A DNA stretch of 64,000 bases from Thermoanaerobaculia bacterium (GTDB taxonomy: Bacteria > Acidobacteriota > Thermoanaerobaculia > Multivoradales > UBA5704), in contig DASVAS010000040.1 in NCBI GenBank assembly GCA_036376245.1, forward strand, positions 64,293-128,292. The letters are read 5' to 3'. This document shows, in pieces, positions 2,422 to 51,652 of this stretch. Position numbers and translations under genes: made by a program. Below the pieces are notes generated by a model. It did no database searches, had not been told where the DNA came from, and saw only the letters and a list, made by a program, of their open reading frames with translations. The stretch's first letter is position 1. Every line of letters begins with the position of its first letter.

Positions 2422-3645
2422 TCAGCTCAGGTGAATGCGGGCGAAACGCCGCTTGCCGACCTTGAAGAGATAAGGCTCCGGCCTGGGCGTCAGCTCCAGG
2501 AAGGGGTTGTCGGTCCGCTGGCCGTCGATGGACACCGCCCCCTGCTGGATCAGCCGCCGCGCCTCGCCGTTGCTCGGCGCCAGCTCCGCGGCGGTCAGCA
2601 GCTTGAGGAGGGTCCAGGAGCCCTCCAGGTCCCGCTCCGGCACGTCGTCCGGCACGCCGCCGCCGGCGAAGACGTTCTCGAACTCGGCTTCCGCCTGGAC
2701 CGCGGCCTCCTCGCCGTGGAACTGGGCCGCCAGCCGCCGCGCCAGCTCCTGCTTGACGCCCTTGGGATGGAGCTCCCCCGCTTCGACCCGCCGGCGGCGC
2801 TCCGCGATCTCTGCCTGGGGCAGGTCGGTGAGGAGCAGGTACCAGTCCCACATCAGCGAGTCGGGGATGGACATCGTCTTGCCGTAGATCTCCCGGGCCG
2901 GGTCCTCGACGGCGATGGCGTTGCCCAGGCTCTTGGACATCTTCTCGTGGCCGTCGAGCCCCACCAGCAGGGGCACGGTGAGGACCACCTGCGGCTCCAT
3001 TCCCTCTTCCTTCATCAGGTCCCGGCCCACCAGCAGGTTGAAGATCTGGTCGTGGCCGCCCAGCTCGACGTCGGCCTGGAGGGCGACGGAGTCGTAGGCC
3101 TGCGCCAGCGGGTAGAGCAGCTCGTGAAGGTGGATCGGCCGGCCTTCCTGGAAGCGGGTGCGGAAGTCCTCGCGCTCCATCATGCGGGCCAGCGTGTAGC
3201 GGCCGGCGAGGCGGATCATGCCCTGGGAGCCGAGCTGGCCGAGCCAGCGGTTGTTGTAGTCGACCACCGTCTCCTTCTCATCCAGCACCCGGAAGACCTG
3301 CCGCTGGTAGGTGAGGGAGTTGGCCTGCACCTCCTCCTCGTTGAGCTGCGGCCGGGTGGCCTTCTTGCCGGTCGGGTCGCCGATGCGGGCCGTGAAGTCG
3401 CCGATCAGGAAGACGACCCGGTGGCCGAGCTGCTGGAAATGCCGCATCTTGCGCAGCAGCACGGTGTGGCCGAGGTGGAGGTCGGGGGAGGAGGGATCGA
3501 AGCCGGCCTTGACCGTCAGCGGCTTGCCGGCCTTGCGGGACTTCTCCAGCTTGGCGCGGAGCTGCGCCTCGTCGACGAGATCGACGCTGCCGCGCCGGAG
3601 CAGCTCCATCTGCTCCTCGACCGGGGGGAAGTCTCTTTCGGGCAT
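2422..3645 (-). CDS. tyrS: tyrosine--tRNA ligase
   Basis: 407 aa; class I HIGH motif (DPSSPDLHLGHTV) and KMSKS motif; C-terminal S4-like domain. Confidence 0.9.
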   Translation of the reverse strand: MPERDFPPVEEQMELLRRGSVDLVDEAQLRAKLEKSRKAGKPLTVKAGFDPSSPDLHLGHTVLLRKMRHFQQLGHRVVFLIGDFTARIGDPTGKKATRPQLNEEEVQANSLTYQRQVFRVLDEKETVVDYNNRWLGQLGSQGMIRLAGRYTLARMMEREDFRTRFQEGRPIHLHELLYPLAQAYDSVALQADVELGGHDQIFNLLVGRDLMKEEGMEPQVVLTVPLLVGLDGHEKMSKSLGNAIAVEDPAREIYGKTMSIPDSLMWDWYLLLTDLPQAEIAERRRRVEAGELHPKGVKQELARRLAAQFHGEEAAVQAEAEFENVFAGGGVPDDVPERDLEGSWTLLKLLTAAELAPSNGEARRLIQQGAVSIDGQRTDNPFLELTPRPEPYLFKVGKRRFARIHLS

Positions 3646-4377
3646 CTAGAAGTTGATGTACTCGAGCTCGGGTTTGAACGCGGGGCCCGCCTGCACCCCG
3701 TGGCGCAGGGGCGGCTGCTTGAACTGCAGCACCATGAACGCCCCGAAGACGGCGCCGAACATCTTATACCGGGCCCGGAATCCCTGGATGAGGCCGCGCT
3801 TCTTCTCCTTGACCAGGTGCTTGAGGTTGTACATCACCGTGGTGGTGGTGCGGCACCCGAGCTGGCGGCAGGCCCAGTTGAGGCCGGTCTCGACGGCGAA
3901 GCCCTCCAGGTGGCTGTCCGGCACGGCCTCGAAGATGTTCCGGCGCAGGCAGCGGATGCCCGAGAGCAGCGGGCCGGTGCTGTCCTGGATCGCGTTGATC
4001 ACCCGGCCCCGGTTGCGGATGCCGACGTTCATGTCGGAGCGGCCGGAGAGGACCGGCTCCATGAGGCGGCTCAGCAGGTCGCCCGTGAGATTCGTGATGT
4101 CGCCGTCCACGAAGAGCAGGACGGGGGCGTCGGTGTGCGCGACCCCGACGGCCATCGCCCGCCCCTTGCCCTGGTTCTGGCGCAGGTGGATGGTCCGCAT
4201 CCCCATGCCGCGGGCGATTTCGACGGTACCGTCCGTCGAGCCGTCGGAGACCACGAGGATCTCGTCGATGCCGGGGGTGGACTTCAGGACCGAGAGGACC
4301 TCGGTCAGCGTCGCTTCCTCATTGTACGCGGGCACGATCGCGGCGACGCGAAGGTCTCCTCCAGAGGCTTTCCTCAT
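3646..4377 (-). CDS. family 2 glycosyltransferase (glucosyl-3-phosphoglycerate synthase-like); ORF extends to 4455 but MRKASGG at 4377 is the likelier start
   Basis: VAAIVPAYNEEATLTEVL...ILVVSDGSTDGT: GT2 DXD-type N-terminal motifs. Confidence 0.7.
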   Translation of the reverse strand: MRKASGGDLRVAAIVPAYNEEATLTEVLSVLKSTPGIDEILVVSDGSTDGTVEIARGMGMRTIHLRQNQGKGRAMAVGVAHTDAPVLLFVDGDITNLTGDLLSRLMEPVLSGRSDMNVGIRNRGRVINAIQDSTGPLLSGIRCLRRNIFEAVPDSHLEGFAVETGLNWACRQLGCRTTTTVMYNLKHLVKEKKRGLIQGFRARYKMFGAVFGAFMVLQFKQPPLRHGVQAGPAFKPELEYINF

Positions 4378-4487
4378 CACAGCCCTCCCGCTCTGCCGAC
4401 GTGCAAGATTCCGGCCCGCCCTGGCTTGGGCGGCAGGCGGCGGAAGAATACCCAAACCCCCGCCATTCTGTCATCCAATTCTGTCAT

Positions 4488-5315
4488 CTACTGGAGCCAG
4501 GCCGGCGGGGCGGGGTCCGCCAGGGCTCCCGGAAGCAGCTCGCCCTCCGCCACCACCCGGGCGTCCCCGGCCAGCGACCACAGGTCCCGCGCGGCGTCGC
4601 CGTCCACCTCCAGCGCGAAGCCGCTCTGGGTCTCGACGCGCAGCGGCAGCCGGGCCGCCCCGGTCGCCAGACCGACGGCGGCGCCGGCCAGGACGCCGGT
4701 GCCGCAGGAGAGGGTCTCGTCCTCCACCCCCCTCTCGAACGTACGGATCTGCATACGGTCCTGTTTCGGGAAACGGACGAAGTTGACGTTGGTCCCCGGC
4801 GGCCCGAAAGCCGGGTGCCGCCGGATCTCCCGGCCCAGATCCCGCACGGGCGCGCCCTCCAGGCCCGCCGGCCAGGGCAGCACGTAGTGGGGCACCCCGA
4901 CCACGATGCGGTACCCCTCGCAGGACGCCCCGCCCACCTCCAGGGTCAGCTCCCGCGGCCCCTCCGCCGGAGCCGGCAGGTCGACCGCCACGCGGGAGTC
5001 GTCGATCCAACGGGCCGCGACGACGCCGGCCCCCGTCCGGATGCTCACCGTATCCGTCGCCCATTGGAGGTGGAAGGCGAGCTGGGCGGCGCAGCGGGTG
5101 CCGTTCAGGCAGAGGTCGGCCGGCAAGCCGTCGGCGTTGAAGTACTCCATGGTGGCGCCGCCTTCCGCCCGGCGGAGCACGAACAGGCCGTCCCCCCCGA
5201 CCGAGACGCCGCGCCGGCACCAGGCGCGGATCGTCTCGGGAGAGGGGGGCGGGGAGATCTCCGCCAGGGCCAGGAAGTCGTTGCCGCTGCCGGAGACCTT
5301 GAAGAACCGCGTCAT
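4488..5315 (-). CDS. dapF: diaminopimelate epimerase; upstream part of the 443-aa ORF is spurious
   Basis: [14 protein letters not shown] start with the SGSGNDF motif, second catalytic-Cys region SCGTG; ATGA overlap with the upstream gene at 5312-5315. Confidence 0.85.
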   Translation of the reverse strand: MTRFFKVSGSGNDFLALAEISPPPSPETIRAWCRRGVSVGGDGLFVLRRAEGGATMEYFNADGLPADLCLNGTRCAAQLAFHLQWATDTVSIRTGAGVVAARWIDDSRVAVDLPAPAEGPRELTLEVGGASCEGYRIVVGVPHYVLPWPAGLEGAPVRDLGREIRRHPAFGPPGTNVNFVRFPKQDRMQIRTFERGVEDETLSCGTGVLAGAAVGLATGAARLPLRVETQSGFALEVDGDAARDLWSLAGDARVVAEGELLPGALADPAPPAWLQ

Positions 5316-39776: not shown

Positions 39777-40322
39777 GCCCTCCCGAAACCCTCACCCCCC
39801 GGCCCCCTCTCCCGCCTTCCACCCCCCTCCCCGGAAGAGAGGGGAATGGATAATGGGAACTGGTTACCTCATGTTACGACCGATTACGTATAAGGCGCGA
39901 TATCTACGGCAGGAGTCCACTCCCGCGGAACGGCTCCTCTGGGCACGTCTCAGGAACCGCCAGCTCCTCGGCGTCAAGTTCCAGCGTCAGGTGCCCATCA
40001 ATCGATACGTGGCGGACTTCTGCAGCCGCGATCTGAGGCTGGTGATTGAGTTGGACGGCGAGGTCCACGCCGAAACAAAACAGATCTCCCACGACCACAC
40101 CCGGGACGGCTATCTGCGCTCGGTCGGCTACAACGTCCTACGCTTCCCCAATCACCAGGTCCTCCAGGACACCGATTCCGTCCTCGATCAAATCGCCACT
40201 GCCATCCGAACCCTCTACCCCCTGGCTCGGCCTCTAGAAGCCATCCCCGTCTTTCTCCCCCTCTCCCGGGGAGGGGGGCGGAAGGCGGGAGAGGGGGCCG
40301 GGGGGTGAGGGTTTCGGGAGGG
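39777..40322. mobile_element. miniature TIR element copy 1 (~546 bp) carrying a DUF559 gene; ~65-bp near-perfect terminal inverted repeats
   Basis: left end ccctcccgaaaccctcaccccccggccccctctcccgccttccacccccctccccgg is the reverse complement of right end 40257-40322. Confidence 0.55.
39853..40308 (+). CDS. DUF559 (Vsr-like endonuclease fold) protein; C-terminus runs into the right TIR
   Basis: RQESTPAERLLWARLRNRQLLGVKFQRQVPINRYVADFCSRDLRLVIELDGEVH...VLRFPNHQV signature of DUF559. Confidence 0.7.
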   Translation: MGTGYLMLRPITYKARYLRQESTPAERLLWARLRNRQLLGVKFQRQVPINRYVADFCSRDLRLVIELDGEVHAETKQISHDHTRDGYLRSVGYNVLRFPNHQVLQDTDSVLDQIATAIRTLYPLARPLEAIPVFLPLSRGGGRKAGEGAGG

Positions 40323-40501
40323 GGCGCGGAACCCCGGTAGCTCTGCTAGAATCAGCTACCGGGAACGTCTTTCGTACTTCAAAAGGGCGGGTGAGCGTGT
40401 GTGACGATCCCTTCTTCCGTGCAGCAACAATCCCACCGATCCCCTCCGGGATGGTTACGGGCCTTGGCCTTCCTCAGGCCGCCGGCCCAGGAGGTTCTTT
40501 C

Positions 40502-44719
<4,218 letters not shown>

Positions 44720-44738
44720 GTACTCCTCCCATACGTCG

Positions 44739-44761
44739 AGCCCGCCGCCTTCGGCGGCGGG
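44739..44761 (+). terminator. GC hairpin after pulA (gcccgccgcc-ttc-ggcggcgggc), no clear U-tract
   Basis: 10-bp perfect stem 20 nt after the stop; immediately abutted by the left TIR of element copy 2. Confidence 0.4.
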
Positions 44762-45307
44762 CCCTCACCCCCCGGCCCCCTCTCCCGACCCCTCCCTCCC
44801 ACCCACGCCGGGAGAGGGGGAGAGGTTTGTCTGAAATCCGGGATAAGATGGCCGGGATGCGAGAGCAAGCTCGGGAGATGCGGAAAAATCCTACTCCCGC
44901 AGAGGAAGTCCTGTGGGAGAGGCTCCGGGATCGGAAACTTCATGGGTTGAAGTTCCGTCGTCAATGTCCGATCGGACCGTTCATCGCAGACTTCTGCTGC
45001 CAGGATCGGAGAGTGATCGTGGAACTTGACGGCGAGATCCACGAGACAGCTCAAGGGGTCGCTCGCGATCAGGGCCGTGACGCCTATCTAAGGGGCTTAA
45101 ACTACGTGGTCCTGCGCTTTCCAAACCAGCAGGTACTCGAAGACCCGGATTCCGTCGTAGACGAGATCTCCACCTCCATCTGGAAGACTCCCCTGCCCTG
45201 GTCAAGGATCAAAAGCTAACCCGTTAGGGCTAATTCAGACAAACCTCTCCCCCTCTCCCGGTGTGGGTGGGAGGGAGGGGTCGGGAGAGGGGGCCGGGGG
45301 GTGAGGG
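44761..45307. mobile_element. miniature TIR element copy 2 (~547 bp) carrying a DUF559 gene; ~70-bp terminal inverted repeats
   Basis: ccctcaccccccggccccctctcccgacccctccctcccacccacgccgggagagggggagaggtttgtct at the left is the reverse complement of 45237-45307. Confidence 0.6.
44827..45219 (+). CDS. DUF559 (Vsr-like endonuclease fold) protein
   Basis: RKNPTPAEEVLWERLRDRKLHGLKFRRQCPIGPFIADFCCQDRRVIVELDGEIH...VLRFPNQQV. Confidence 0.75.
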   Translation: MSEIRDKMAGMREQAREMRKNPTPAEEVLWERLRDRKLHGLKFRRQCPIGPFIADFCCQDRRVIVELDGEIHETAQGVARDQGRDAYLRGLNYVVLRFPNQQVLEDPDSVVDEISTSIWKTPLPWSRIKS

Positions 45308-45321
45308 CTCGGGCGGGGGGC

Positions 45322-45915
45322 TCAGAGGCTGCCAGTATCAGCCTCAGCCTCAGTCTCTTCTTCACCCTCGCCCTCCTGCACCGTCCGCGCCGCATCCCTG
45401 GGCCGGTCGGCGATGGCCGCCGCCAAGGCTTCGCTGAGGCGGCCGTCGACGCGCACCAGCGTCAGCTCGCTGTCTTCCAGGCTCACCACGAAGAGGTTGC
45501 GCAGGGCTCCCTTGCCGTCGTCGCGGAGGAAGATCCAGGTGCGGGAATCGGCCTCGCGGGTGCGCATCGTCATCGCCCAGCCGTCCTTGGCCAGCCGCTT
45601 CTCGAAGCGGAGGTCCTTGTCGATGGTCGACAGGTCGGGCAGGTCGCTCACCCGGTAGGTGGCGACCTCGAAGCGTTGGACGGAGGTGATCATCTCCTGC
45701 TCTTCGATCTCGCCGGGGACCATGCGGATGAGCCCGTTAACCAATCCCATGGAGAGGCGGCCGAACGCGATGCGCTCCTCCTGCTCGAAATGAGCTTCCG
45801 GGACCCGCCGCTGGATCTCCCAACGCACCTGGTCCACGGTGGGCGAGCCGGCGCATCCGGCGGCCAGAGAAGCCAGACCCAGCAGACCGAGCAGCGAAAC
45901 GGCGTTGCGCTTCAT
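45322..45915 (-). CDS. DUF4252-like lipoprotein
   Basis: MKRNAVSLLGLLGLASLAAGC lipobox; ~200 aa; paralogous to the next gene; sits in an ECF sigma/anti-sigma operon. Confidence 0.5.
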   Translation of the reverse strand: MKRNAVSLLGLLGLASLAAGCAGSPTVDQVRWEIQRRVPEAHFEQEERIAFGRLSMGLVNGLIRMVPGEIEEQEMITSVQRFEVATYRVSDLPDLSTIDKDLRFEKRLAKDGWAMTMRTREADSRTWIFLRDDGKGALRNLFVVSLEDSELTLVRVDGRLSEALAAAIADRPRDAARTVQEGEGEEETEAEADTGSL

Positions 45916-45943
45916 GACGAGCCTCCTCGAAAAATTCTTCGGA

Positions 45944-46519
45944 TCACTCCGGCTTCTTCTTGCCGTCCCCGGACGGCACCTTGTCCAGGCCCGGCAGATC
46001 CATGTCGATGTTCAGGCCCCGGCTGATGCGGCCGATGTCGGCGGGATCGAAGCGGCCCGCGATGTTGATCACCACCGCTTCCCCTTCGCCCATGGCGAGC
46101 ACGGTCATCCCCATGACGTTGCCGTCCGTCTCCTTGAGGTAGATGTGGGTCTCCTCGCCCTTTTCGCGGACCCGCACCGTCGACTTCCAGCCCTGTCCCT
46201 CCAGCCAGCGGACGGCGCGGCCGATGCTGGTCTTGGCCAGGGATTCGTTCCCATCCTCGAGCGGCAGCACCTGGACGCGGATCGACCGCAGGCTGCCGAG
46301 CAGGGACGCGAGATCCGGATCCTCCCCCTTCAGAGCCTCGGCGACCATCCGGAGGAGGGCGCCTTCGATGTTGATCTCGACGCTCAGCTTGTCCTCGGGG
46401 AAAAGGTTGAGATCGTCGAGGGGCAGGAGCCCGGTCGCCGGCGGCGGCGCCTTCTGGGCGAACGCGCCGGGCGCCGCCAGGACGAGCAGGAGGATCGAGA
46501 GGATCATGGTCTTGCGCAT
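45944..46519 (-). CDS. DUF4252-like secreted protein
   Basis: signal peptide MRKTMILSILLLVLAAPGAFA; same architecture as neighbour. Confidence 0.5.
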   Translation of the reverse strand: MRKTMILSILLLVLAAPGAFAQKAPPPATGLLPLDDLNLFPEDKLSVEINIEGALLRMVAEALKGEDPDLASLLGSLRSIRVQVLPLEDGNESLAKTSIGRAVRWLEGQGWKSTVRVREKGEETHIYLKETDGNVMGMTVLAMGEGEAVVINIAGRFDPADIGRISRGLNIDMDLPGLDKVPSGDGKKKPE

Positions 46520-46531
46520 CTTCAGCTCCTT

Positions 46532-47089
46532 CTAGCGCCGCCCGGGGGCGGGCTCCTCCGGGGCCGGGCTGACGCCCAGCGACCGGGCAAGGCCGCGCGC
46601 GGTGGGGCTCACCACGTGCTTCTGGAGGATCTGGTCCCGGAGGTCCAGGCCGGTCCGGCGGCTCACCTTGCCGATCATGGCCAGGGCGTACCGGACTTCG
46701 AGCTCGGCCTGGGCGATCTGCTCCCGCTCCCGCTGGACCTGCTGGACATGGAGGAAGAGGGCGCCGCCGCCCACCGAGAGGACCAGCGCGGCCGCCACAG
46801 CGGCGATCCGCCGGCCCAGAGTCCGTTCCCGCCGGGGGAACGCGACGACCTCGCCCTTGCCCGCCCTGCGGACCTTCTCCAGGACCCCCGGTGGGCAGTC
46901 GGGCAGCGGCAGGGTCCGCAGCTCGCGCTGGATCTTCTCCGCCAGGGCCAGTTCGGCGGCGCAGGCCGGGCATCCCGCCAGATGCTCCTGGAAACGGAGC
47001 GACTCCTCCGCCGGCAGGTCGCCGTCCACATAGGCTTCCAGGACGTCCAGCGACTCTTCGCACAGCATGCGGTCTTCGTGTCGGTTCAT
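46532..47089 (-). CDS. zinc-finger anti-sigma factor (membrane-anchored); upstream 176 codons of the ORF are spurious
   Basis: HLAGCPACAAEL (HxxxCxxC) zinc-binding anti-sigma motif; one TM (IAAVAAALVLSVGGGALFL); ATGA overlap with sigma gene. Confidence 0.7.
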   Translation of the reverse strand: MNRHEDRMLCEESLDVLEAYVDGDLPAEESLRFQEHLAGCPACAAELALAEKIQRELRTLPLPDCPPGVLEKVRRAGKGEVVAFPRRERTLGRRIAAVAAALVLSVGGGALFLHVQQVQREREQIAQAELEVRYALAMIGKVSRRTGLDLRDQILQKHVVSPTARGLARSLGVSPAPEEPAPGRR

Positions 47090-47622
47090 ACCGGGCTGAC
47101 CTCCCGCAATCGTTCCCGCAGCTTGCGGCGTCCGCGATGCAGATGGACGCGCACGGTGGCTTCCGGGATTCCCAACGCTTCGCCGATCTCCCGGTGCGGG
47201 AGCCCTTGGACCTCCCGCAGGATCACGACGCTCTTGTACGGCTCTCCGAGCTCTCCCAGCGCCTCCAGCAGACGGCGGCGGAAGTCGGTGTCCCGCGCCC
47301 TCACCTCCGGGCTGGGCTCGGAGCTGGCGACCTCGTGGGCGTCCTCCTCGTCCAGACTGGCGCTGATGCCCGCGGCGGCCTCGGAGCGCCGCCGCCGGAG
47401 CAGGTCGTAGCAGGCGTTGCGGGTGACCCGCAACAGCCACGACCCCAGGCGCTCCTCGTCGACGCCCTCCTGGTGCCGCCAGAGGCGGAGGAGGACCTCC
47501 TGCGTGACGTCCTCCGCCTCCTCCCGGTTGGAGAGGAGGTACCGCGCGAAGGAATAGACCCTGCGCCGGTATCTCTGGGCGGTGTCCTCGAAGGCCGTCA
47601 GCATGAGCGCTCCACACATCAT
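47086..47622 (-). CDS. ECF (sigma-70 family, group IV) RNA polymerase sigma factor
   Basis: region 2 (EDVTQEVLLRLWR) and region 4 HTH (VILREVQGLPHREIGEALGIPEATVRVHLHRGRRKLR). Confidence 0.85.
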   Translation of the reverse strand: MMCGALMLTAFEDTAQRYRRRVYSFARYLLSNREEAEDVTQEVLLRLWRHQEGVDEERLGSWLLRVTRNACYDLLRRRRSEAAAGISASLDEEDAHEVASSEPSPEVRARDTDFRRRLLEALGELGEPYKSVVILREVQGLPHREIGEALGIPEATVRVHLHRGRRKLRERLREVSPV

Positions 47623-47688
47623 GACGGATCAGGGGCGGGAACGTTTCAATCGGCGTTGGATTCGGATAAACTTCAAGTGATACTTGAG

Positions 47689-48408
47689 GTGTCGACCTTG
47701 ATCTACGTGCCTGCCTTTTCCCGAGATGCGCGAAATACGGCCACCTACGGGCTGGCTCAGGCGGCGCGTTACCTCGGACTCTCCTCGACCACCCTACGGC
47801 AGTGGGTGCTGGGGCGTCCCTATCCCGTGAAGTCCGGGGCGGAGTTCTCGGCTCCGCTGATCAAGCTTCCCGATCCCGGCAAGCCTGCCCTGTCTTTCAC
47901 GAATCTGGTCGAGGCCTACGTCCTGGCGTCGCTCCGCAGGAAGCACCGCATCCGGATGCGGAAGATCCGGCTCGCCCTCTCCTACCTCGAAGACAAGCTG
48001 GGCTCGGAACATCCCCTGGCGACCGAACAGCTCGAGAGCGCGGGAGGCAGCCTGTTCATCCGGAAGTACGGCCAACTGATCGATCTTCCCGAGAGCGGCC
48101 AGACCGCCATCGAAGAGGTCTGGAGACCCTATCTCCGGCGGATCGAGCACGACGCCTCGGGCCTTGCGGAGCGCTTCTACCCCGTCCGGCGGCTCGCGGA
48201 CGCCTCCGCCCCCCGGGTCGTGGTCATCGATCCTGAGATCTCCTTCGGCCGGCCCACCATCGCCGGACGAGGCGTGAGCGTCGCCATCCTGGTGGATCGG
48301 TTCAGCGCAGGTGAATCGATGACCGATCTCGCAGAGGATTACGAACTGACTCAGCAGCAGGTCGAAGAGGCTATCCGCTACGGGCTCCCCGACGAGCTGG
48401 CTGCGTGA
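47689..48408 (+). CDS. DUF433 domain protein (putative antitoxin-like partner of DUF5615); start uncertain (GTG 47689 or TTG 47698)
   Basis: C-terminal DUF433 pattern VVIDPEISFGRPTIAGRGVSVAILVDRFSAGESMTDLAEDYELTQQQVEEAIRY. Confidence 0.6.
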   Translation: MSTLIYVPAFSRDARNTATYGLAQAARYLGLSSTTLRQWVLGRPYPVKSGAEFSAPLIKLPDPGKPALSFTNLVEAYVLASLRRKHRIRMRKIRLALSYLEDKLGSEHPLATEQLESAGGSLFIRKYGQLIDLPESGQTAIEEVWRPYLRRIEHDASGLAERFYPVRRLADASAPRVVVIDPEISFGRPTIAGRGVSVAILVDRFSAGESMTDLAEDYELTQQQVEEAIRYGLPDELAA

Positions 48409-48409
48409 A

Positions 48410-48847
48410 GTAACCTTCTTCTGCGACAACGACCTCGGGACGAAGCTGTTCCCGCGCGCCCTCCGGGATCACGGGCTCAAGGTCGAGACGCTGATCCAGA
48501 CCTTTCATCAGTACGACACCCAGGACCGTGACTGGCTGCCGGAAGTCGGCAGGCGCGGCTGGGTCGTCCTGACGGCCGATTACCGGATGCGCTATCGCGA
48601 GCGGGAACGCGACGCCATCATGGACAACAACGTTCGTGTGTTCGTGCTTCGCGGGCACCTTCACACCCAACGGATCTCTTATTTCCTGGACAACCTGCAC
48701 CACGTCGAGAGATTCCTCCGCACCTATGAGGAAGCTTTCGTGGCGAAGGTCTATCGCGACCGTGTCGAGATGTGGCTGCGCTATGTCGATTGGCGGGAAA
48801 GAGTCGGAATCGATCCGCCGGAGGACCCGGAGGATGATCTAACCTGA
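48410..48847 (+). CDS. DUF5615-like PIN-fold protein; no canonical start codon found in frame (frame opens at 48350, first ATG at 48587)
   Basis: ...VTFFCDNDLGTKLFPRALRDHGLKVETL... typical of DUF5615 N-termini (MKFLADENL); adjacent to DUF433 as in known DUF433/DUF5615 pairs. Confidence 0.4.
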   Translation, partial: VTFFCDNDLGTKLFPRALRDHGLKVETLIQTFHQYDTQDRDWLPEVGRRGWVVLTADYRMRYRERERDAIMDNNVRVFVLRGHLHTQRISYFLDNLHHVERFLRTYEEAFVAKVYRDRVEMWLRYVDWRERVGIDPPEDPEDDLT

Positions 48848-48863
48848 CCACTACAATGCGGCT

Positions 48864-51347
48864 GTGATCGCCGCCCTCGCCCTCCTGACCGCCTCCGCCG
48901 CCTTAGCGGCCCCGCCTTCGATCGACCGGGCCATCGATCTCCACACCTCGGGACAGCTCGAGGAGGCGCTGCGGGAGTACCGGGCCGTGGCGGCGGCGGA
49001 ACCGGAGATGCGGGGCGTGGCGCTCACCAACGTCTGCGCCCTCCAGATGGACCTCGGGGAGTACCGGGCGGCGTTGCCGGACTGCCGCGAGGCCCTGCGG
49101 CTGAGCCGGAAGACCGGAGATCCCGGCGAGATCGCCTGGGCGCTCAACAACCTGGCGCTGGATCTCCAGGCCCTTGGAAAGACCGCCGAGGCGGAACGCC
49201 TCTTCCGCGAAGCCTTAGGGATCAACCGCCGGCGGGGCGACGCCGAATCCCAGGTCATCAACCTCTCCAATCTGGGGACTCTCGCCCTGGCGGCCGGCCG
49301 CTACTCGGCGGCGCTGCGTCTTCAGGACGAAGCCGCCGCCCTGGCTTCCCGCCACCGGGACGAGCCCTGGGCGGCGGAGCAGACCGCCATCGCCCGCATC
49401 AACCAGGGCGCCGTGCTGGAGAAGGTCGGCGCCTATCGCGAAGCCCTCGACCTCTACAAGGGGATGCTGGCCGACGCCGGCGGCCTGGACCGCGGACGGC
49501 GCGCCGCCTTGCTGGTCAACTCCGGCGTGATCTACCGCAACCTGGGCGATCCCGTGCGGGCGGTGGAGTCCTTCCGCGAGGCCGTCGAGGCCTACCGGGA
49601 GGCGGGGGATCAGGCGGGGCTCTCCAACGCCTGGCTCAACCTGGGGCTCGCCCATTACCTGAACCTGGAGCGGCCCGGGGAGGCCGAGGCCGCCTACCGC
49701 GAGGCCCTGCGGCTGGCCGAGGCGAGCGGCGACCGGACGGAGGAGATCCAGGACCTCTTCTACCTCGGTCAGCTCCTGCTGGAGCAGGGGCGCTTGGAGG
49801 AGGCCGAGACGGTCTACGGACGGAGCCTCACGATTGCCATCCAGGCCGGATCGGCGGAGGGCCGCTGGTCCGCACGCGAGGGTCTGGGACGGATCGCCCG
49901 CGCCCGCGGCGACCTGGACGGAGCCTTGAGCCACTTCGAGCTCGCCCTGGTAGAGATCGAGCAGGTCCGCGCCGGCCTCTCCCGCGGTGGACGCCGGTCC
50001 GGATACTTCGGCGACAAGCGGGCCGTCTACGCCGCCACGGTCGGCGCCCTCGTGGAGCGGGACCACCGCGAGCCCGGCCAGGGCTGGGCCGAGAGAGCCC
50101 TGGAAGTCGTCCTGCGCGCCAAGGCCCGGGACCTCCTGGACGCTCTAGGCGAAGCCGGCGGGTCCCGCGCTCCCCTGGGCGGGCTGCGGCGGCGGGTGGG
50201 GAACGGCGCGGCGCTGGAGTACTTCGCGGGCGAGGATCACCTCTATCTCTGGGTGATCCGCGGCAGCGGCATCCGCCTGCACGATCTCGGCAAGGCCAAG
50301 CCGGTCCTGGACGCCGTCGCGCGGGTCCATCGTGCCCTCTCCCGGGGTGAAAAGCCGCCCGCGGCGGCGGTGACCGCGCTCTCCCGTGTGCTCCTCGCTT
50401 CCGCCCGTCCCTTGCCCCGGGGGGAAGAGCTGCTCCGAATCGCCCCCGACGGCGCGCTCCACTACCTCCCCTTCGAGATATTGGAGGACCCGGCCGTCCC
50501 CGGCAGGCCTCTGGTGGAGCGGGTGGCGGTGAGCTATCTCCCGAGCGCTTCGATGCTGATGGAATTGGAGGGAAAGCAAACGCGAGCCGGAGTCTGGCTG
50601 GCGGGCTTCGCCGATCCCCGGCTGCCGCGTCCCGGCTCCGGCCCCTCCTCCCCCCGGGATCTCCTCGTCGAGCGTTTCGGCCTCGCGCCGCTCCCCGCCT
50701 CGGACCGGGAGCTGAAGACGGTGGGACGGCTCCTCAGCGGCAGCACCGCCTTGTTTACCGGAGATCTGGCCACCGAGCAGGCCTTCCGGAAGGCGGTGAC
50801 CCGTGGGGCGCGGGTGGTCCACTTCGCCACGCACACCGTCATCGACGAGCGGCCCGGGAGGGGCGCGGCGATCCTGCTGACCGCCGCCGGGGAGGACGAC
50901 GGCCTCCTCTACCCCGAGGAGATCGCCCGTCTCCCCGGCCGCTCGGACCTGACCGTCCTCGCCGCCTGCCGCACCGCCCTGGGTCCCGGGGGAGAGGGGC
51001 AGGCCCTGGCCACGCTCACCGGCTCCTTCCTGGCCGCCGGCTCCCAAGGCGTGGTAGCGACCCTCTGGGACATGGGAGACGCCGCCACCGCCGCCTTCAT
51101 GGAGCAGTTCTACTGGGAGCTCGGCCAGGGCCGGAAACCCGCGGAGGCGCTGCGGAGGGCCAAGCTGCGCCTGCGGCAGGACCCGCGCTGGCGCCGGCCC
51201 GATCTGTGGGCGGGGTATGTGCTGATCGGCGAGGCGCCGGCGGTGACGCCGGGGAGGAGGGCCTGGTGGGTGTGGGGGCTTGGGGGGTTACTGGTAGCGA
51301 TAGGGGTGTGGTGGCTGTGGCGGGCCCCCGCCCGGCTGCTGCCGTGA
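48864..51347 (+). CDS. TPR-repeat protein with C-terminal CHAT (caspase-like) domain and C-terminal TM anchor; GTG start
   Basis: multiple TPR-like repeats (ALNNLALDLQALGK..., LSNLGTLALAAGR...) then CHAT pattern (HFATHTVIDE..., DLTVLAACRTALG...VVATLWDMGDAATAAFMEQFY). Confidence 0.75.
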   Translation: MIAALALLTASAALAAPPSIDRAIDLHTSGQLEEALREYRAVAAAEPEMRGVALTNVCALQMDLGEYRAALPDCREALRLSRKTGDPGEIAWALNNLALDLQALGKTAEAERLFREALGINRRRGDAESQVINLSNLGTLALAAGRYSAALRLQDEAAALASRHRDEPWAAEQTAIARINQGAVLEKVGAYREALDLYKGMLADAGGLDRGRRAALLVNSGVIYRNLGDPVRAVESFREAVEAYREAGDQAGLSNAWLNLGLAHYLNLERPGEAEAAYREALRLAEASGDRTEEIQDLFYLGQLLLEQGRLEEAETVYGRSLTIAIQAGSAEGRWSAREGLGRIARARGDLDGALSHFELALVEIEQVRAGLSRGGRRSGYFGDKRAVYAATVGALVERDHREPGQGWAERALEVVLRAKARDLLDALGEAGGSRAPLGGLRRRVGNGAALEYFAGEDHLYLWVIRGSGIRLHDLGKAKPVLDAVARVHRALSRGEKPPAAAVTALSRVLLASARPLPRGEELLRIAPDGALHYLPFEILEDPAVPGRPLVERVAVSYLPSASMLMELEGKQTRAGVWLAGFADPRLPRPGSGPSSPRDLLVERFGLAPLPASDRELKTVGRLLSGSTALFTGDLATEQAFRKAVTRGARVVHFATHTVIDERPGRGAAILLTAAGEDDGLLYPEEIARLPGRSDLTVLAACRTALGPGGEGQALATLTGSFLAAGSQGVVATLWDMGDAATAAFMEQFYWELGQGRKPAEALRRAKLRLRQDPRWRRPDLWAGYVLIGEAPAVTPGRRAWWVWGLGGLLVAIGVWWLWRAPARLLP

Positions 51348-51652
51348 TCGCAGGCTGATCGTTGAATTGGACGGGCAGATCCACGACACGGACCAGAACG
51401 TGGCCCGTGATTCTCAGCGAGACGCCTATCTCAAAGGCCAGAACTACATCGTCCTGCGATTCCCAAACCAGAGGATCTTCGACGACCTCGACTCCGTTCT
51501 CCTGGAAATCGCCAAGGCCGCCGGCGGATCCCCCAACCCCTGGCTCCGCTACCACGAACCCTGACCAACTATCCGACTAACTTTCTCCCCTCTCCCGGTG
51601 AGGGAGGGTGGGAGGGGTCGGGAGAGGGGCCGGGGGTGAGGGTTCGGGCGGA
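51348..51652. mobile_element. 5'-truncated remnant of the DUF559 TIR element (copy 3): 3' gene fragment plus right TIR only
   Basis: gene fragment RLIVELDGQIHDT...VLRFPNQRI homologous to copies 1/2; right TIR tttctcccctctcccggtgagggagggtgggaggggtcgggagaggggccgggggtgaggg; begins directly after the stop of the TPR-CHAT gene. Confidence 0.55.
51352..51564 (+). pseudogene. truncated DUF559 gene (C-terminal ~70 codons only)
   Basis: lacks the N-terminal half present in copies 1 and 2. Confidence 0.55.

Follow-up and report, generated by a model that had tools for sequence, protein, structure and literature searches.

DUF559 nuclease genes between inverted BoxC/PIT/TM triplex repeats in a Thermoanaerobaculia bacterium: a possible homing-type cassette

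RAYT genes encode HUH Y1 transposases (TnpA_REP), and their defining anatomy is that they are flanked by inverted copies of a repeat, the simple hairpin of repetitive extragenic palindromic (REP) sequences. The DUF559 proteins are, to our knowledge, a large nuclease family for which no substrate is known. Another structured bacterial repeat has reportedly been catalogued since 1992, as BoxC by Bergler in 1992, as the PIT element by Hoyne in 2000 and as TM_ECO by Holder in 2015. This triplex motif (TM), found in more than 260 genomes from many phyla, forms an intrastrand triplex in vitro, which was shown only for oligonucleotides of Escherichia coli, and according to its authors, genes with a mobility function, such as a transposase or an integrase, never turned up in its vicinity (PMC4666352). 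Another group has described this sequence as a hairpin/G-quadruplex (HPGQ) switch (PMC5100583). These repeats have been linked to genome instability, the choice between triplex and G-quadruplex is debated, and their function, origin and spread are without known explanation (PMC4666352, PMC5100583). The present analysis concerns a 64-kb stretch of contig DASVAS010000040.1 from a Thermoanaerobaculia bacterium (Acidobacteriota), hereafter called the window, to which all coordinates refer unless another locus is named. It carries three copies of a small element, each of them consisting of one DUF559/Vsr-like nuclease gene and GC-rich inverted arms. Judged by its sequence, the core of these arms is the BoxC/PIT/TM motif and is not specific to the element. 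Both components are known, whereas the type of cassette that they form is most likely widespread and undescribed. No paper linking DUF559 to these repeats was found in open-access text, and an earlier description elsewhere is possible.

Two of the three copies are intact elements of ~550 bp (Table 1) and the third is a 5′-truncated remnant (~51332-51645) that has only the right arm. DUF559 is the sole open reading frame (ORF) of these elements. The three ORFs match Pfam PF04480 with 128.4, 121.6 and 53.3 bits (gathering cut-off 20.6) and the copies are ~70% identical in nucleotides. The 26-nt core of the arms, CCCTCACCCCCCGGCCCCCTCTCCCG, has exactly four occurrences versus none expected (100 shuffles), and each arm holds a nested hairpin, CCCCCTCTCCCG-(18-23 nt)-CGGGAGAGGGGG. 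The conserved arm reaches ~10-14 nt beyond this core (ccctcccgaaa in copy 1, CGCCCCCGCCCGAA in relatives). Folded as a single strand, copy 2 forms a stem of 78 bp whose loop contains the gene (z = -13.8). The arm core is laid out as a CCCTCTCCC/GGGAGAGGG hairpin, a short linker and a third strand, GGGGTGAGGG, and the window arms match type B of TM_ECO, CCCTCTCCC-loop-GGGAGAGGG-CCG-GGGTGAGGG (PMC4666352, Table 1). In copy 1, the left-arm motif consists of the complement of the third strand, CCCTCACCCC, and of a hairpin whose inner half is partly degenerate (GGAAGAGAGGGG), while the right-arm motif reads CCCCCTCTCCC, a 19-nt loop, GGGAGAGGGGG, CCG and GGGGGTGAGGG; the ORF runs on into this right arm and its TGA stop falls within GGGGTGAGGG.

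A detector of perfect pyrimidine/purine hairpins of at least 8 bp with a mirror third strand (G.G, A.A or T.A) identifies five motifs in the window and no more; their perfect arms measure 8-11 nt and all five lie at the three DUF559 loci. A match to CCCCTCTCCCG at 5237 was rejected as an additional motif, being without a hairpin partner. The window motifs share with BoxC/PIT/TM the core sequence and layout, the intergenic location, the frequent occurrence as inverted pairs and the conservation across phyla. They differ by: (i) their hairpin loops (19-25 nt in the register of the detector, 18-23 nt if the flanking G-C pair is counted as stem), compared to 1-6 nt in published motifs and in the ITxF definition and 3-6 nt in relatives from other phyla, (ii) the family-specific outer extension of the arms, and (iii) the nuclease gene between the pair, where published work reports no associated gene. 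No Rfam family was found for the region, neither in the window at gathering thresholds nor for copy 2 at E-values up to 10, apart from microRNA-like hairpin matches that are due to chance only, and a promoter scan of the arms and their surroundings revealed no sigma-70-like site.

These results agree with most of an initial annotation made from the sequence alone, which had described three homologous DUF559 loci (two intact, one 5′-truncated), inverted repeats with a common 26-nt core around copies 1 and 2, palindromes within the arms, the position of copy 2 right after the terminator hairpin of pulA and of copy 1 between a divergent gene pair, and the lack of any transposase. Its statement that the element is not a described insertion sequence (IS) family also holds, in so far as no description of the element was found in open-access literature. 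It had taken the arms for terminal inverted repeats proper to the element, overlooking that their core is a widespread repeat. For copy 3, it was right about the 3′ half of the gene and the right arm but had placed the start exactly at the stop codon of the upstream TPR-CHAT gene. In nucleotide alignments, homology already begins at CTGCTGCCGTGATCG (~51332) and, therefore, the TPR-CHAT stop (TGA, 51345-51347) lies inside the DUF559 remnant. The final codons and the stop of the TPR-CHAT ORF (48864-51347) thus derive from the truncated gene (51300-51350), and its present 3′ end was made by a rearrangement with a breakpoint inside DUF559. Copy 3 covers only positions 50-106 of the PF04480 profile, i.e. 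its C-terminal half. Its right arm, of which 51572-51636 is 83% identical to the right arm of copy 2, has one-base deletions in two G-runs.

DUF559 is a predicted Vsr-like PD-(D/E)xK nuclease. The solved folds nearest to the AlphaFold2 model of copy 2 (pLDDT 87.9) are, in this order, NGO0050 (3HRL; TM-score 0.70/0.91), the catalytic domain of I-Bth0305I (3R3P; Foldseek E = 1.4e-3, TM-score 0.60) and Vsr (1VSR), and 3HRL is also a direct sequence homologue (E = 1.5e-18). DUF559 has the fold and the acidic/His catalytic residues in common with NGO0050 and Vsr (PF03852): D48 and E59 never vary among 58 sequences, in at least 90% of which D61, G62 and H65 are also conserved, and the DF...ELDGEVH motif is intact in the protein of copy 1. 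Unlike Vsr, DUF559 genes have no adjoining cognate cytosine methyltransferase gene and no apparent link to T:G mismatch repair. The structural neighbors of the model also include several mitoribosomal proteins of Toxoplasma and Tetrahymena, which fits the relationship of RAP-type domains to this fold. In NCBI, copy 2 is annotated as an "endonuclease domain-containing protein" of 130 aa starting from TTG 44827 (P0241, 100% identical). In the ORFs of the three elements, Pfam detected DUF559 alone and no HUH Y1 (IS200/IS605-type) transposase; NCBIfam returned the YcjD equivalog alone, with a score under its cut-off, and no PADLOC defence model matched. The protein is under purifying selection, with a ratio of nonsynonymous to synonymous divergence (dN/dS) of 0.27 between copies 1 and 2 and of 0.15-0.28 overall, at saturated synonymous sites (dS at least 1.4). 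Since the four arms of copies 1 and 2 nevertheless have exactly the same 26-nt core, the DNA motif is strongly constrained as well.

The association of DUF559 with triplex motifs is both statistical and architectural, and it extends far beyond the window. In 80 metagenome loci chosen by similarity of the DUF559 protein alone, exact motif 9-mers reach 5.75/kb within 250 nt of the gene compared to 0.24/kb beyond 600 nt, and structurally defined motifs reach 2.6/kb within 300 nt compared to 0.048/kb far from it, a 55-fold enrichment. At least one triplex motif is present in 55 of these loci and motifs are found on both sides of the gene in 32. Aligning the upstream flank with the reverse-complemented downstream flank gives a median score of 27 within a locus and 14 between loci. 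Motif variants include GGGAGAGGG, GGGGGAAGG, GGGGGAGGG and AT-richer forms in contigs of 31-45% GC. The three strands vary together with mirror symmetry maintained (for example, purine arm GGAGAGGAAAGGG with third strand GGGATAGGTGAGG), and the type of variant correlates with the similarity of the DUF559 proteins (permutation test, 1 of 1000). Over 173 hairpins, the third strand follows a mirror rule in 61 and a direct rule in 36, a count that discriminates weakly, as G-rich arms slide; the useful evidence comes from the long asymmetric examples. In the commoner arrangement (24 loci), the third strands lie between the gene and the hairpins. The opposite layout, which is that of the window and has the hairpins on the inside, was found in three loci and also in Deinococcus and in two loci described below (L212 and L213), and some loci carry a full motif pair on either side of the gene. 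The same pairing exists in cultured organisms: E. coli (ycjD), Deinococcus proteolyticus (pDEIPR03), Azospirillum lipoferum and Neisseria gonorrhoeae.

Some cassettes are probably missed by such searches. On plasmid pAQ6 of Picosynechococcus PCC 7002 (L208), DUF559 is flanked by miniature G5 motifs (CCCCC-loop-GGGGG-cta-GGGGG), which suggests that cyanobacterial variants escape the detector and its 8-nt minimum arm; a second repeat, ccctaaatccccg..ggggactttctactggtg, flanks the same gene. Contigs with close homologues of copy 2 are mostly very short (0.5-3 kb), which is expected if repeated arms break metagenome assemblies, and DUF559 cassettes are probably under-represented in metagenome-assembled genomes. 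Carriage on plasmids and phages is rare (49 of 72,556 plasmid records and four phage records), so that plasmids or phages were rejected as the vector.

A scan made in the other direction, with a slightly relaxed 26-nt core and one genome per species, gave at least 120 loci. The matches listed belong to Pseudomonadota, Planctomycetota, Chloroflexota, Acidobacteriota, Spirochaetia and other groups, and have in common the unit CCCTCACCCC-NGG-CCCCTCTCCCG-loop-CGGGAGAGGGG.

Comparison of orthologous sites revealed that the gene can be present or absent. At the site of copy 1, a relative whose pulA product shares 79% amino acid identity with that of the window and whose upstream synteny is conserved (L203) carries no gene but a perfect 95-nt collapsed palindrome (third strand, hairpin, third strand; t-h-x-H-T), with the same outer ends as copy 1 (ccctcccgaa...ttcgggaggg). 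As the left and right arms of a full element repeat the same hairpin arms, a deletion from one of these repeats to the other would yield exactly this product. Between this palindrome and pulA, L203 has ~900 nt (4090-5000) missing from the window, with no called gene and with open frames on the minus strand. At the site of copy 2, neither triplex motif nor DUF559 was found after pulA in the loci of four relatives (L203-L207); in L206 and L207, two contigs that have one pulA protein in common and the synteny of the window on both sides, the space is occupied by an unrelated 177-aa ORF. In L204, pulA is preceded at a distance of 1.8 kb by a Y1_Tnp gene (PF01797, IS200/RAYT-type; 2775-3227), which has no relation to the DUF559 elements but is of interest when they are compared with REP-type systems. 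The orthologue of the gene adjoining copy 3 stands beside a triplex-motif pair devoid of gene in another locus (L016). Furthermore, gene-less elements of ~150 nt occur in related genomes (L040, L047 and L088), with arms and inner flanks common to those of gene-bearing elements.

The closest homologues of copy 2 (64-71% identity) are located elsewhere, between mutS and a GH3 gene (L212 and L213), and are bounded by arms of the same type as those of the window, down to the loop and the outermost 14 nt. Between L212 and L213, flanks and arms are collinear (87-88% identity; dS of 0.42 for GH3 and 0.36 for mutS), whereas the DUF559 interiors are in opposite orientations, with 62% amino acid identity and a dS of ~4.9. 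Therefore, the gene was replaced or independently acquired inside fixed arms. Target-site duplications are not visible at the junctions of copies 1-3, L203, L017 and L201, among which there is no clean pair of a filled and a repeat-free empty site.

The motif-DUF559-motif unit also occupies coding sequences. It is found in frame inside LeuRS (L017), HrpA (L201), HsdR (L156) and HsdM (L127), as well as in HsdS (L125, and L171 according to its motif) and in a type ISP enzyme (L178). It interrupts a Pfam domain of the host protein in LeuRS, HsdR, HsdM and the type ISP enzyme and lies between two host domains in HrpA, precisely between ERFSKHF and APVLQVSGR, where E. coli HrpA reads ERFSRHF-NN-APIIEVSGR. 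The eight closest orthologues of the LeuRS (76-89% identity) lack the cassette; they carry a different loop variant, which makes the junction unreadable at the nucleotide level. Neither intein nor intron features were seen at DUF559 cassettes. Restriction-modification genes (hsdR, hsdM, hsdS twice and the type ISP gene) make up most of the hosts of in-frame cassettes (L122-L201), and a subgroup of these cassettes has an N-terminal YRGGF(E/D/R)FSGL motif in common. In addition to the cassette, the ORFs of HsdR (L156, 713-3022) and HrpA (L201, 1532-5194) have further short in-frame insertions that resemble translated solo motifs, such as PSTSGRGAGGEG in HsdR and, in HrpA, a 33-aa stretch with SPLPHPQATPH that is missing from E. 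coli HrpA.

In E. coli, a single ycjD coexists with ~23 dispersed motifs. In strain K-12, a degenerate hairpin lies at the stop codon of ycjD, and TM number 9 is found further downstream (L121, 2240-2420). Between the gene and this motif, 40 nt of the 3′ coding end of ycjD are repeated almost unchanged (tggagacggtgctggagaatattcggcaaggtctgaaccg), which resembles a vestige of a second or an earlier DUF559 copy. The interval between fabI and sapF contains either ycjD with a triplex motif (3346-3378 of 5426 genomes) or the 7.9-kb eefRABCD efflux operon without the motif; when the eef allele of E. coli APEC E19019 (L202) is compared with the ycjD allele of K-12 (L121), the breakpoint on the fabI side falls just before the motif. 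At least two independent losses of eef have been inferred (PMC12817139).

Taken as a whole, these data lead us to favor, on balance and without strong confidence, a homing-type selfish nuclease gene for which pairs of triplex motifs would be both landing pads and homology arms. The DUF559 nuclease would recognize or cut triplex-motif DNA, perhaps in the folded state that this DNA might adopt when single-stranded or supercoiled. A cut made at the motifs or between them would be repaired with a filled pair as the template, so that host recombination would copy the gene into the empty pair. The site, being palindromic, would accept the gene in either orientation. Loss of the gene could follow from a deletion between the repeated hairpin arms, leaving the ~150-nt gene-less pairs or the ~95-nt collapsed palindrome. 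We infer both the cleavage of triplex-motif DNA by DUF559 and the spread by break-induced gene conversion. Such a gene would resemble REPIN-RAYT systems, with another enzyme and another repeat. Homing endonuclease genes are a further close parallel, especially the Vsr-like/EDxHD enzyme I-Bth0305I, whose catalytic fold is related to that of DUF559: they show polymorphic presence at their sites, replacement inside conserved flanks and no transposase. They differ in that their site is a unique conserved gene sequence instead of a pair of dispersed repeats, and in that DUF559 ORFs either stand alone or are translated, in frame, within a host protein. The initial annotation had already considered that DUF559 itself could mediate mobility or homing. 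Its view of discrete, repeat-bounded elements agrees with other genomes, where the same arms flank the closest DUF559 homologues (L212 and L213) and gene-less versions exist (L040, L047, L088 and L203).

Several observations weigh against such homing. DUF559 is present in just three of the 120 motif-first loci listed, although the gene abuts the motif in all three, and the triplex repeat, widespread in many phyla, mostly occurs without DUF559. The two opposite arrangements of hairpin and third strand do not obviously fit a single recognition geometry. The replacement between L212 and L213 could have proceeded by ordinary recombination with incoming DNA, the arms providing homology and the nuclease remaining idle. 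The sample contains no near-identical cassettes at different loci (best pairwise identity 87%) and thus no sign of recent movement. In E. coli, ycjD is single-copy and static (3378 of 5426 genomes), and strains devoid of ycjD still carry motifs. It should also be emphasized that homing of the gene does not account for how the repeats themselves reach new sites, coding sequences included.

The main rival explanation, which we consider rather unlikely and which is not mutually exclusive with homing, proposes that, as in REPIN-RAYT systems, the repeats are the mobile or maintained entity and DUF559 a dedicated, largely vertically inherited nuclease that disseminates or maintains them in trans, the gene sitting between two repeats only because the gene of such a system resides there. 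The flanks of inverted repeat copies are indeed those of RAYT genes, the one static ycjD of E. coli with its 23 dispersed motifs looks like such a system, motifs exceed genes by ~40 to 1 among the motif-selected loci listed, and solo motifs stand in frame in HsdR and HrpA. The general likeness is that of a nuclease-type gene between inverted copies of a dispersed structured repeat that is mostly gene-free. However, the window has three gene copies and not a single solo motif in 64 kb, the replacement of the interior in fixed arms shows that the gene itself moves, and the motifs persist in the E. coli strains lacking ycjD. The enzymes differ too, as a hydrolytic Vsr-like PD-(D/E)xK nuclease is incapable of the strand transfer performed by the HUH transposases of RAYT systems. 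Finally, the triplex-capable Y-R-R motif contrasts with the simple REP hairpin, and the gene is multicopy in the genome of the window and is itself exchanged between sites.

An ordinary non-autonomous transposon, similar to miniature inverted-repeat transposable elements (MITEs), with DUF559 as a passenger and the transposase encoded elsewhere, is a less plausible explanation still. MITEs would likewise have long terminal inverted repeats, a small size and short gene-less derivatives with the same ends and inner flanks, and would be present in some relatives and absent from others. Unlike MITEs, the elements have no visible target-site duplication at the junctions read, no transposase in or beside them and no families of near-identical copies; moreover, the "passenger" belongs to the same gene family in many phyla and its repeats vary along with it. 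Transposition of the whole unit, which the initial annotation had left open beside homing, is therefore disfavored, because no duplication is seen, near-identical copies are lacking and, at the mutS-GH3 site, the arms stay fixed while the interior is replaced and inverted. These data fit better with a gene that enters and leaves sites bounded by the repeats. By the tests applied, the element lies outside any IS or MITE family, its enzyme is not that of RAYT systems, and it is not borne by an intron or intein.

We regard as very unlikely that the arms constitute an invertible switch, flipping the DUF559 segment and causing phase variation of the nuclease or of the host gene containing it. DUF559 proteins are 14-fold enriched among predicted targets of programmed inversion (PMC9881135), and the interior is inverted between L212 and L213, but these interiors are not the same allele (dS ~4.9 versus ~0.4 in the flanks), no recombinase gene adjoins the window loci, L212 or L213, and there is no promoter-like site at the arms. 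Lastly, the idea that the motifs are generic intergenic palindromes, terminator- or REP-like, and that DUF559 merely lies in repeat-rich intergenic DNA is largely refuted: the motifs are common, intergenic and mostly gene-free and copy 2 abuts a terminator hairpin, but coincidence explains neither the 55-fold local enrichment with symmetric bracketing, nor motifs in contigs of 31-45% GC, nor those at both ends of in-frame insertions in conserved protein cores, nor the E. coli motif that is present with ycjD and missing from the eef allele of the same locus.

The coordinates of the elements are given in Table 1. Copy 1 has a divergent FAD-oxidoreductase gene on one side and pulA on the other, and copy 2 sits between the terminator hairpin of pulA and the stop codon of a convergent lipoprotein gene. 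Within its 5′ portion (40591-41744), pulA contains internal repeats of ~300 nt, with spacings of 300, 327, 294 and 621 nt and 68-85% identity, which probably encode repeated N-terminal carbohydrate-binding/X25 modules.

Table 1. Position of the DUF559 elements, their arms and their genes in the window
Feature	Coordinates	Strand	Remarks
Copy 1, complete element (left arm, DUF559 gene, right arm)	39778..40322		inverted repeat I2, 66 nt, 95% complementary
Copy 1, left arm	39778..39843		triplex motif on minus strand, 39791-39844
Copy 1, DUF559 ORF	39853..40308	+	start ATG 39853 or 39871; PF04480 E = 1.4e-37
Copy 1, right arm	40257..40322		triplex motif on plus strand, 40257-40311
Copy 2, complete element	44758..45311		inverted repeat I1, 78 nt, 97% complementary
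Copy 2, left arm	44758..44835		triplex motif on minus strand, 44762-44820
Copy 2, DUF559 ORF	44848..45219	+	123 aa from ATG; PF04480 E = 1.8e-35
Copy 2, right arm	45234..45311		triplex motif on plus strand, 45249-45307
Copy 3, 3′ half of DUF559 (~codon 50 to stop)	51332..51567	+	PF04480 E = 2.8e-14
Copy 3, right arm (only arm kept)	51572..51645		triplex motif on plus strand, 51587-51642

The coupling between DUF559 and the repeat is specific and cross-phylum, and makes the repeat a candidate substrate of the nuclease and the nuclease a candidate agent of the repeat. It accounts for: (i) spurious "PSPPAPLP..GEG" peptides, (ii) DUF559 "domains" annotated inside LeuRS, HrpA and subunits of type I restriction-modification systems, and (iii) assembly breaks at the loci of DUF559 cassettes. 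If true, it would constitute a second system associating a nuclease and a structured repeat beside REPIN-RAYT, and DUF559 may be a structure-specific nuclease of biotechnological interest. We also put forward, tentatively and as a possibility that we do not yet hold to be probable, that DUF559 could be the missing enzymatic partner of BoxC/PIT/TM repeats throughout Bacteria. The cassettes would then represent a new class of selfish element, whose nuclease would recognize non-B DNA (intrastrand triplex or hairpin/G-quadruplex) and whose repeats would serve as portable landing pads, allowing the cassette to settle even in frame in essential genes, leuS and hrpA among them, without any intein or intron. 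Overall, this work suggests DUF559 as a partner for a repeat that has been without known function since the 1990s.

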